NCBI RefSeq assembly: GCF_036507355.1
Contig: NZ_AP027877.1
Source: Escherichia coli
GTDB taxonomy: Bacteria; Pseudomonadota; Gammaproteobacteria; Enterobacterales; Enterobacteriaceae
Direction: 5' to 3' (one strand)
DNA: 64,000 bases
Shown here piece after piece: positions 61,270-64,000 of this stretch (positions within the stretch are counted from its first letter, which is position 1; the number at the start of each line of letters is the position of its first letter). The notes under the pieces are model-generated. The model searched no databases. It had not been told where the DNA came from and saw nothing but the letters and a program-made list of their open reading frames with translations. The translations under genes were made by a program, and so were the position numbers.

Positions 61270-61284
61270 GGTAATGACTCCAAC

Positions 61285-61788
61285 TTACTGATAGTGTTTT
61301 ATGTTCAGATAATGCCCGATGACCTTGTCATGCAGCTCCACCGATTTTGAGAACGACAGTGACTTCCGTCCCAGCCTTGCCAGATGTTGTCTCAGATTCA
61401 GATTATGTCGCTCAATGCGCTGAGTGTAACGCTTGCTGATAACGTGCAGCTTTCCCTTCAGGCGTGATTCATACAGCGGCCAGCCATCCGTCATCCATAC
61501 CACGACCTCAAAGGCCGACAGCAGGCTCAGAAGACGCTCCAGTGTGGCCAGAGTGCGTTCACCGAAGACGTGCGCCACAACCGTCCTCCGTATCCTGTCA
61601 TACGCGTAAAACAGCCAGCGCTGACGTGATTTAGCACCGACGTAGCCCCACTGTTCGTCCATTTCAGCGCAGACAATCACATCACTGCCCGGTTGTATGC
61701 GCGAGGTTACCGACTGCGGCCTGAGTTTTTTAAGTGACGTAAAACCGTGTTGAGGCCAACGCCCATAATGCGTGCACTGGCGCGACAT
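61285..61788 (-). CDS. insB: IS1 InsB (transposase C-terminal part, made as InsAB' by -1 frameshift)
   Basis: 167-aa ORF ...[58 protein letters not shown]... Confidence 0.93.
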
Positions 61789-61982
61789 CCGACGCCATTC
61801 ATGGCCATATCAATGATTTTCTGGTGCGTACCGGGCTGAGAGGTGGTGTAAGTGAACTGTAGTTGCCATGTTTTACGGCAATGAGAGCAGAGATAGCGCT
61901 GATGTCCGGCAGTGCTTTTGCCGTTACGCACCACGCCTTCAGTAGCGGAGCAGGAAGGACATCTGATGGAAATGGAAGCCAC
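61707..61982 (-). CDS. insA: IS1 InsA (transposition inhibitor/DNA-binding)
   Basis: 91-aa [46 protein letters not shown] (zinc-finger Cys pattern); A6C slippery site (minus-strand AAAAAAC) at 61725-61731. Confidence 0.93.
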
Positions 61983-62037
61983 GCAAGCACCTTAAAATCA
62001 CCATCATACACTAAATCAGTAAGTTGGCAGCATTACC

Positions 62038-62296
62038 CAAAATTGACGTTGCGCGTATCTACAATTGTCTGATTCAGAACAATATCGACACGATAAACCC
62101 CTGGCGTTATTTTTTGTCCTTTTTCGAAACGAGACAAATCGGCCACCATTGAGGGATCATCTTTGAAAAAGGCTGGATCGAACCAGGTTTCAGCTTGTGC
62201 ATTGAACGCTGCCGACACAAACACCACCAGCCCACCAATAAACGATGGCACTCCACCAGAGCTTAACAGGCTGTGTTGTCGGTGAGTTCTATACAT
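62038..62296 (-). pseudogene. elfC: elfC (ycbS) usher, N-terminal fragment (signal peptide + first ~86 codons)
   Basis: MYRTHRQHSLLSSGGVPSFIGGLVVFVSAAFNAQAETWFDPAFFKDDPSMVADLSRFEKGQKITPGVYRVDIVLNQ... parallels FimD N-terminus; runs into IS1 end. Confidence 0.88.
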
Positions 62297-62320
62297 CTCG
62301 CTCTCTTAACTGAAGACGAA

Positions 62321-63022
62321 TTACGATTTACAGTTGAGTTGCGGCGTTTCCGCCCCGTAGTCATTGATGGTTCGATACGTTACGCTGCTATTTTTGGCAC
62401 CCTTTGGCAGAGAGAATTGGTATTTATCAAAGGGGGAAATCATTTGATTTTTAACTACCTTTCCACCTATTTTCAGGTCTGTCAGGGTAATGAAATAAGG
62501 TGTTGGGTTACTGACCGTAACCATGTCAGCTGACGAAGTGCAACGCAGTTTCGCCGGAGCCTCGCCTAAGGGATACGCTAAACCTTTTGGTCGCCAGAAA
62601 AGTTTGATGACGCTTTGTGTGGCAATCTTCAGGGTATTTCCCTCTTCCCGCTTCGTTGTTGAAGGGACTGCCCGTACGCTAGTGAAGAAAAGGGTTTCTC
62701 TGTCTTTCGCCAACGGCGCACCAATGTACATAATGCGTAACAGATTCTCATTAGCCGGATTCAGCACAAATAGCGGTGGTGTAATAATAAAGTCTGCTGA
62801 TTTTTTATTATCTGGGGTCATCACCCATGACTGAATAAGATAAGGAACATCCGGACTGGTGTTACGTACACCCAGTGAAATTTGCTCTTCACCTTCTGAA
62901 TAAACAAGACGTGTTGCTGCAAGTCCAATCCCGCCTTTACCTGCCGCCCATGCGGATGAGCAGCTGAGTAATATTGCCGTTAAACTTACGGTCACAATTC
63001 CCTTTGTTATGCAAGTTTTCAT
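62321..63022 (-). CDS. elfD: Periplasmic fimbrial chaperone ElfD (YcbR)
   Basis: 233-aa ORF, signal peptide, chaperone-type block ATRLVYSEGEEQISLGVRNTSPDVPYLIQSWV. Confidence 0.88.
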   Translation of the reverse strand: MKTCITKGIVTVSLTAILLSCSSAWAAGKGGIGLAATRLVYSEGEEQISLGVRNTSPDVPYLIQSWVMTPDNKKSADFIITPPLFVLNPANENLLRIMYIGAPLAKDRETLFFTSVRAVPSTTKREEGNTLKIATQSVIKLFWRPKGLAYPLGEAPAKLRCTSSADMVTVSNPTPYFITLTDLKIGGKVVKNQMISPFDKYQFSLPKGAKNSSVTYRTINDYGAETPQLNCKS

Positions 63023-63125
63023 AAATAGTCACTCTTAAAAAATATGAATATCCCCTCCAGAACACTGGAGGAGTACAAATTAATAAAACAATTAATGAGT
63101 TCTATTAATAGGTAATGACTCCAAC

Positions 63126-63629
63126 TTATTGATAGTGTTTTATGTTCAGATAATGCCCGATGACTTTGTCATGCAGCTCCACCGATTTTGAGAACGACAG
63201 CGACTTCCGTCCCAGCCGTGCCAGGTGCTGCCTCAGATTCAGGTTATGCCGCTCAATTCGCTGCGTATATCGCTTGCTGATTACGTGCAGCTTTCCCTTC
63301 AGGCGGGATTCATACAGCGGCCAGCCATCCGTCATCCATATCACCACGTCAAAGGGTGACAGCAGGCTCATAAGACGCCCCAGCGTCGCCATCGTGCGTT
63401 CACCGAATACGTGCGCAACAACCGTCTTCCGGAGCCTGTCATACGCGTAAAACAGCCAGCGCTGGCGCGATTTAGCCCCGACATAGCCCCACTGTTCGTC
63501 CATTTCCGCGCAGACGATGACGTCACTGCCCGGCTGTATGCGCGAGGTTACCGACTGCGGCCTGAGTTTTTTAAGTGACGTAAAATCGTGTTGAGGCCAA
63601 CGCCCATAATGCGGGCTGTTGCCCGGCAT
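63126..63629 (-). CDS. insB: IS1 InsB
   Basis: 167-aa ORF; differs from the InsB of the first copy at 14 residues by my reading. Confidence 0.93.
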
Positions 63630-63823
63630 CCAACGCCATTCATGGCCATATCAATGATTTTCTGGTGCGTACCGGGTTGAGAAGCGGTGTAAGTGAACTG
63701 CAGTTGCCATGTTTTACGGCAGTGAGAGCAGAGATAGCGCTGATGTCCGGCGGTGCTTTTGCCGTTACGCACCACCCCGTCAGTAGCTGAACAGGAGGGA
63801 CAGCTGATAGAAACAGAAGCCAC
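63548..63823 (-). CDS. insA: IS1 InsA
   Basis: 91-aa [46 protein letters not shown]; slippery site at 63565-63571. Confidence 0.93.
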
Positions 63824-64000
63824 TGGAGCACCTCAAAAACACCATCATACACTAAATCAGTAAGTTGGCAGCATCACCGAGTAATTCATTGATTCAACAT
63901 CTAATGACTATCCAATAAATAAATATGCGTGATATATAAAGCCCTTTCTTTAGTTTATTTTCAGAAAAAGATACACAAAATTTATATTTGGCATTTTCTT

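Follow-up and report, generated by a model that had tools for sequence, protein, structure and literature searches.

The elf (ycbQRST) operon in the 64,000-nucleotide stretch of Escherichia coli DNA analysed here (the window) carries two IS1 elements, one in the fimbrial usher gene elfC and one in place of the major-subunit gene elfA. We consider it likely that this chaperone-usher fimbrial operon stands at its native place in a chromosome of the E. coli/Shigella type and that two unrelated IS1 events have inactivated it. The left, IS1F-type copy is a simple insertion in elfC. The right, IS1A-type copy most probably represents an insertion upstream of elfA that was followed by an IS1-promoted adjacent deletion.

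Two complete IS1 copies of different isoforms

The left copy lies at positions 61270-62037 and the right copy at 63111-63878; each is complete and 768 bp long, and the 64 kb window contains no other IS1. Both have the same orientation, with insA and insB on the minus strand, an IRR-type end (GGTAATGACTCC) on the left and an IRL-type end on the right, and they are separated by 1,073 bp (62038-63110). Their ends form imperfect terminal inverted repeats of approximately 23 bp (GGTGATGCTGCCAACTTACTGAT and GGTAATGACTCCAACTTATTGAT), and the IRL of the left copy contains the variant GGTAATG. Because the IS1 end pattern matched three times in the window, against 0.04 matches expected from shuffled sequence, the pair is no chance match. 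The left copy carries insA at 61707-61982, insB at 61285-61788 and the A6C frameshift site at 61725-61731, and the right copy carries the same features at 63548-63823, 63126-63629 and 63566-63572, respectively. In both copies, the A6C site for -1 frameshifting is found at IS position 307, and the full 232-aa InsAB' frame is open. Since the ends, insA, the A6C site and this frame are intact in both copies, more IS1-driven rearrangement may be possible at the locus.

Gap-free alignment of 61270-62037 with 63111-63878 showed 69 mismatches in 768 positions (37 transitions and 32 transversions), corresponding to 91.0% identity. At the protein level, InsA differed at 6 of 91 residues and InsB at 14 of 167. 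The initial annotation had described two different IS1 variants on one strand, 1,073 bp apart, with these same residue counts; every detail was reproduced, and the two copies proved to be far from near-identical.

Comparison with the K-12 isoforms specified the difference. The left copy had 6 mismatches to K-12 IS1F (99.2% identity) and 69 to IS1A, and the right copy had 2 mismatches to K-12 IS1A and 73 to IS1F. The annotated K-12 IS1A and IS1F elements themselves differ at 73 sites, a figure also given by a 2025 study of K-12 IS1 (PMC12428005). Judged against the K-12 references, the left copy is classed as IS1F-type, and another named iso-IS1 may be closer; the right copy is assigned to the IS1A type by its near identity to K-12 IS1A. 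A search of 5,426 complete E. coli genomes found many chromosomal and plasmid elements, annotated in RefSeq as IS1A family, with 100% identity to the right copy; elements one mismatch away from the left copy were present in many genomes.

The left copy resembles K-12 IS1F (an iso-IS1, "type IV") in its length of 768 bp, its sequence and its divergence of about 9% from IS1A. However, the transposase frame of K-12 IS1F is truncated (162 aa as reconstructed, annotated as a pseudogene), whereas that of the left copy is full-length, and K-12 IS1F adjoins fecI, whereas the left copy sits in elfC. The right copy resembles the "consensus" IS1 of K-12 (IS1A and IS1E) and the common plasmid IS1, and differs from K-12 IS1A by one amino-acid change, S130R in InsAB'. 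Unlike the usual IS1A, it has no flanking duplication, one of its junctions apparently having been remade by deletion.

Anatomy of the elf operon in the window

K-12 and one E. coli genome whose elf operon is intact served as references for mapping the region. From position 5690 to its end, the window is colinear with K-12 apart from the IS1D that K-12 carries, 192 bp deleted from elfC, the pair of IS1 copies and the loss of elfA. On the minus strand, the elfC 3' fragment (59112-61269), split off by the left IS1, corresponds to K-12 elfC 1001816-999467 minus 192 bp. The 192-bp deletion is in frame and is located at 60060-60066, between 7-bp direct repeats (GTAGCCA). On the other side of the left copy, the elfC 5' fragment (62036-62296, minus strand) comprises 87 codons, and its product has a PapC_N Pfam match in the precomputed table. 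The stop codon of this fragment (62033-62035) comes from the IS1 end and depends on the GGTAATG variant.

The gene for the periplasmic fimbrial chaperone, elfD (62321-63022, minus strand, 233 aa), is intact, as judged by its PapD_N and PapD_C domains and by synteny with K-12. It is co-directional with the IS1A genes and lies downstream of them, and the exact ElfD protein is widespread, being listed in 54,845 index blocks. The elfD-elfA spacer (63023-63104) and the last 6 nt of elfA (63105-63110) follow on the same strand, as established by K-12 mapping. The open reading frames and the K-12 mapping thus bore out the earlier description of an interval that encloses elfD and the elfC 5' fragment.

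The left copy is a simple insertion

The IS1F-type copy interrupts elfC at codon 87 and is flanked by 8 bp, CAAAATTG, at 61262-61269 and again at 62038-62045. As K-12 999467-999474 (CAAAATTG) aligns with both sides of the element, these 8 bp are the target duplication of the left copy; IS1 target duplications are reported to measure 8 or 9 bp (PMC12428005). The corresponding event would have been the entry of an IS1F-type element into elfC codon 87 with the generation of the 8-bp duplication.

The right copy replaces elfA

The flanks of the IS1A-type copy share no repeat: the left flank ends in CTATTAATA and the right flank begins with GAGTAATTC (GAGTAATTCATTG). They map to K-12 998402 and 997706, indicating that 695 bp including elfA are absent, and the right IS1 stands in the place of K-12 997707-998401. 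The lost segment consists of elfA except for its last 6 nt and of 161 bp upstream of its start codon. The elfA remnant is thus a Tyr codon and the stop codon (window position 63110 corresponds to K-12 998402, and K-12 elfA spans 997868-998407). To the right of the element, the elfA upstream remnant, which belongs to the elfA-ssuE intergenic region, extends from 63879 to the window end at 64000 and matches K-12 997706-997585 at 99% identity. Neither the missing duplication nor the loss of elfA had been recorded in the initial annotation.

The right copy shows one kept junction, one new junction, a loss of contiguous DNA and no duplication, as found in adjacent deletions. IS1 is the classic case of adjacent deletion, known since the 1970s from deletions in the gal region. 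Those deletions likewise left one original junction and one new one, with the DNA between them lost, the IS kept and no duplication; however, they came from a selection experiment, whereas at the elf locus the ancestor-like and the deleted states are both found in natural isolates (see below).

We propose that an IS1A-type element first entered a site 161 bp upstream of elfA, where it would have generated a 9-bp duplication, GAGTAATTC. The IRR end of this element would then have been fused to a point 6 nt short of the elfA 3' end, which would remove 704 bp: elfA, its promoter-proximal region and the left-hand repeat of the duplication. The deletion most likely occurred by intramolecular replicative transposition; within the chromosome, IS1 transposed only replicatively in the assays of one study (PMC12428005). 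The simplest order of events would be IS1F into elfC (lineage-wide), IS1A upstream of elfA and, finally, the elfA deletion. We infer this order and the transpositional mechanism, and recombination between two copies would yield the same end product.

Related contigs record an ancestor-like state

Because the reading frame of the 87-aa ElfC fragment is closed by the IS1 end, this fragment is a specific tag for the insertion site, and an exact-protein lookup with it led to a handful of contigs. Two of them, the Logan assemblies L023 (SRR17480487) and L024 (SRR31122001), were 100% identical to window positions 62009-63110, including the IS1F-type end. Past the position equivalent to 63110, L023 runs through an intact elfA and ends with GAACGAGTAATTC followed by GGTAATGACTCCAACTTATTGATAGTGT. 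This terminus (GAGTAATTC joined to GGTAATGACTCCAACTTATTG) shows an IRR end of the IS1A type, oriented as in the window. The IS1 end of L023 comes directly after GAGTAATTC, which in the window forms the first 9 bases beyond the right copy (63879-63887) and is located 153-161 bp upstream of the position where the elfA start codon used to be. This exact 9-bp offset between the L023 junction and the right junction of the window is what an IS1 duplication requires, indicating that L023 represents an ancestor-like state. The target duplication was thus seen directly for the left copy (8 bp) and through L023 for the right copy, for which a 9-bp duplication is inferred and GAGTAATTC in the window would be its kept right-hand copy. 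L023 is a short contig that ends in IS1, and its right-hand IS1 junction lies beyond the contig. From the 9-bp offset, the orientation and an isoform-specific base, its IS1 is best read as the same insertion as the right copy of the window.

The other contigs carried different events. In L024, an IS1 end in inverted orientation lies 46 nt inside elfA; we considered L024 as an intermediate of two-copy recombination and rejected this, as its IS1 is inverted relative to the IS1A of the window. L032 (GCA_021425525.1) was 100% identical to the window over 52051-61322; this stretch takes in the IS1F junction, which is thereby confirmed in an independent assembly, as well as the 192-bp deletion of elfC. 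L033 (GCA_905398635.1) was 100% identical to 52051-59261 and then passed into an IS1A-type IRR end; it may be a larger deletion from the same IS1A anchor or a separate new insertion. A 166-bp "mini-IS1" in contig L020 was dismissed, as it contains N and reflects a collapsed repeat in a scaffold and no real element.

These sister contigs bear on a second route to the loss of elfA, namely RecA-dependent recombination between two direct IS1A copies, one at the GAGTAATTC site and one, now lost, at the elfA 3' end. This route would likewise leave a single IS1 without a duplication, and IS-IS recombination is, along with adjacent deletion, one of the usual causes of absent duplications (PMC11708052). 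The elfA region has also been struck repeatedly, as by the IS1 of L024, and in the set of 5,426 complete genomes, approximately 100-140 carry an IS1 end no more than about 0.5 kb away from these flanks. However, no relative was found with an IS1 at 63110/63111 and an intact elfA, and the one extra elfA IS1 of the lineage, that of L024, is inverted and would invert rather than delete. Recombination of two copies also takes one event more than an adjacent deletion, and we regard it as an unlikely source of the present structure.

Public isolates of this rare lineage may document successive rearrangements that all start from one IS1A. Such a series would lead from the insertion seen in L023 to the 704-bp deletion of the window and on to a further deletion of about 3.85 kb in L033, reaching elfC at 59261 and including IS1F, with L024 as a possible inversion-type product. 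We offer this series tentatively, as a possibility that is rather less likely to be right than wrong. If true, it would show from natural isolates how nested IS1 deletions wear down a fimbrial operon at a recurrent IS1 site.

The contigs also speak to whether the divergent pair could be an assembly artefact, with the wrong isoform placed in a repeat gap. Short-read assemblies of the relatives do break or collapse here, as the N inside the collapsed IS1 of L020 illustrates, and contigs L021-L024, L032 and L033 terminate in IS1 ends. Nevertheless, independent contigs carry isoform-specific bases where element and flank meet. For the IS1F type, 53 bp of the IRR end agree at 100% with L032, and the IRL end with GGTAATG recurs in L023 and L024; for the IS1A type, the IRR end is present in L023 and L033. 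In addition, the GGTAATG-dependent stop codon that closes the 87-aa elfC product was recovered in independent samples. An artefact is, in our judgement, extremely improbable.

The IS1 pair does not form a mobile unit

The interval had initially been called composite-transposon-like, and the layout agrees with this name: the IS1 copies form a direct pair, the outer ends are a proper IRR (61270) and IRL (63878) pair, and the transposase frames are open, with InsAB' intact in both copies. Its implication of a mobile unit did not hold. The outer flanks, ACAAAATTG on the left and GAGTAATTC on the right, carry no duplication that spans the unit, CAAAATTG and GAGTAATTC being unmatched, and the context is native and colinear with K-12. 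In Tn9, direct IS1 repeats flank cat. Like Tn9, the window has two direct IS1 copies around a passenger; however, the copies of Tn9 are near-identical and the unit moves with an outer duplication, whereas the copies in the window are 9% divergent, their flanks differ and the passenger is native.

It is therefore very hard to see block 61270-63878 as a Tn9-like composite transposon that carries elfD and has moved, or is able to move, as a unit. Despite the direct orientation and the paired outer ends, K-12 colinearity extends over the passenger and both flanks, and the left copy has a duplication of its own. In the genome and plasmid collections searched, the IS1F-'elfC-elfD-IS1A unit was not found at a non-native site. 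A search of PLSDB with the interval returned four matches, all of them chromosome-like records with native neighbours, and none in a non-native context. Moreover, the sister contigs share the left insertion and differ in their IS1 events around elfA, indicating that the block was assembled in place. On the unmatched flanks, the K-12 colinearity and the plasmid search, we rejected the composite-transposon idea, and Tn9-like transposition is refuted as a past event. The duplication of the left copy and the differing elfA-side events of the sister contigs also upheld the earlier claim that the two copies came from independent insertions rather than a local duplication. The IS1 pair around 'elfC-elfD is in all likelihood a by-product of two hits in an often-struck region.

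A further suggestion was that the two copies could recombine homologously and so delete the segment between them. This is possible in principle, but the longest perfectly identical run between the two copies is 51 bp (ten runs are at least 23 bp long). Divergence of 9% is a known barrier to recombination, through strong suppression by mismatch repair, so recombination between these copies should be inefficient. The candidate further loss in L033, if it is a deletion and not a new insertion, ends at an IS1A end and not in a hybrid IS1.

IS1 recurs at the elf locus in other E. coli

The elfC 5' end and the elfA region are recurrent IS1 targets across E. coli. Other E. coli genomes carry IS1 at four further positions in the 5' part of elfC. 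In another lineage, with flanks 98.2-98.5% identical to those of the window, an IS1 in the opposite orientation sits at precisely this elfC position and is flanked by an identical 8-bp duplication. In several genomes, IS1 lies in the elfA-ssuE spacer. Two complete and unrelated genomes, WP5-S17-ESBL-10 and strain 3359, have an IS1 without target duplication, in the same orientation, accompanied by elfA deletions of their own (loss of K-12 998380-997816 and 998340-997993).

The exact junctions of the window and the 192-bp elfC deletion were absent from the 5,426 complete E. coli genomes. The junction queries were 70-80 nt long and nearby pieces were joined in the matches, so what they support is that no single-piece exact junction is present and that IS1 ends are frequent at distances up to about 0.5 kb. 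The deletion junction was also absent from an exact scan of GTDB representative genomes. No complete E. coli genome had the whole arrangement, the best full-length matches reaching 97% and being joined from separate pieces, and the predicted 704-aa ElfC fragment had no match in the protein lookup. Over 24 kb, the best backbone identity among complete E. coli genomes was 99.4%, which together with the absence of the exact junctions fits a sparsely sampled lineage.

The biology is of a known kind: two IS1 insertions and one adjacent deletion represent ordinary IS-mediated gene decay of a dispensable fimbrial operon. The same loss of usher and major subunit in a cryptic operon is seen in the IS-driven pseudogenisation of chaperone-usher operons in E. 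coli and Shigella. The main use of the result is in annotation, where the right IS1 should be labelled a deletion scar and not a simple insertion; beyond annotation, its importance is small. The locus provides a clean textbook case in which both states of an IS1 adjacent deletion can be recovered from public data. With the major-subunit gene gone, the usher split after codon 87 and 64 internal usher codons missing, the ELF operon is dead, and the sequence predicts that the laminin-binding ELF (YcbQ) fimbriae are not made in this strain.

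IS1-associated loss of elfA in other genomes

Two unrelated complete E. coli genomes each carried an IS1 copy that lacked a target-site duplication (TSD), lay in the same orientation as the right copy of the window and took the place of elfA sequence. The copy at 2555-3322 of L034 (NZ_AP022105.1) replaced 565 bp of elfA, and that at 2594-3361 of L035 (NZ_CP103739.1) replaced 348 bp, indicating that IS1-associated loss of elfA is recurrent.

Other IS1 states were found within the window lineage. Contig L033 (GCA_905398635.1) was 100% identical to window positions 52051-59261 and then passed directly into an IS1A-type IRR end (reverse-complement 7211/7212, corresponding to window position 59261). 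One junction lies on this contig, which represents either a larger deletion, of approximately 3.85 kb, from the IS1A anchor of the window or a separate insertion; a larger deletion would have removed IS1F, elfD and most of elfC. A second contig of the lineage, L024 (SRR31122001), had an IS1 IRL end (GGTGATGCTGCC) 46 nt into elfA, at reverse-complement position about 1590 and inverted relative to the IS1A copy of the window. The same sample contained the elfC::IS1F junction found in the window, and the IS1 end in elfA fits either a new insertion or an inversion-type product of intramolecular transposition.

Strain GF66.1 (NZ_CP172194.1) had an IS1B-family copy, a further IS1 hit in the elfA-ssuE spacer (about 350 bp), inserted at 4151/4152 of L001; this point corresponds to window 63999/64000 and matches the last base of the window. 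The IS1D that adjoins gfcA in K-12 was missing from the window, where the empty site was read straight through and 9 bp (11135-11143) aligned on both sides of the K-12 element.

Recurrent IS1 insertion and an internal deletion in elfC

Three sequences of another E. coli lineage (L020, L021 and L022) carried an IS1 in the opposite orientation exactly at the elfC insertion position of the window, with an 8-bp duplication (CAAAATTG) identical to that of the left copy and flanks 98.2-98.5% identical to the window. The L020 copy (about 5838-6008, reverse complement) was collapsed around a scaffold N. The identical site and duplication in a second lineage point to this position as an IS1 insertion hot spot.

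Elsewhere in the 5' part of elfC, E. coli EM06-18-14, AS19-RrmA-, 2018-10-1CC and CFS3246 (L003-L006) carried IS1A-family insertions. All of these insertions were co-directional with elfC and left annotated N-terminal fragments of 333-606 nt, of which the 600-nt and 606-nt cases may share one site.

An in-frame deletion of 192 bp in elfC compared with K-12 (64 codons; window 60060-60066, minus strand; K-12 1000677-1000868), bounded by 7-bp direct repeats (GTAGCCA), is a third, IS-independent lesion of the elf operon. It was found in none of 5,426 complete E. coli genomes and was also carried by draft contig L032 of the window lineage.

Coding capacity of the IS1F-type copy

The InsAB' frame of K-12 IS1F (L008 3473-4240) ends at 162 aa, whereas that of the IS1F-type copy in the window (61270-62037) is open over 232 aa. 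Judging from this difference in reading frame, the published near-inactivity of IS1F in K-12 may not extend to the window copy.
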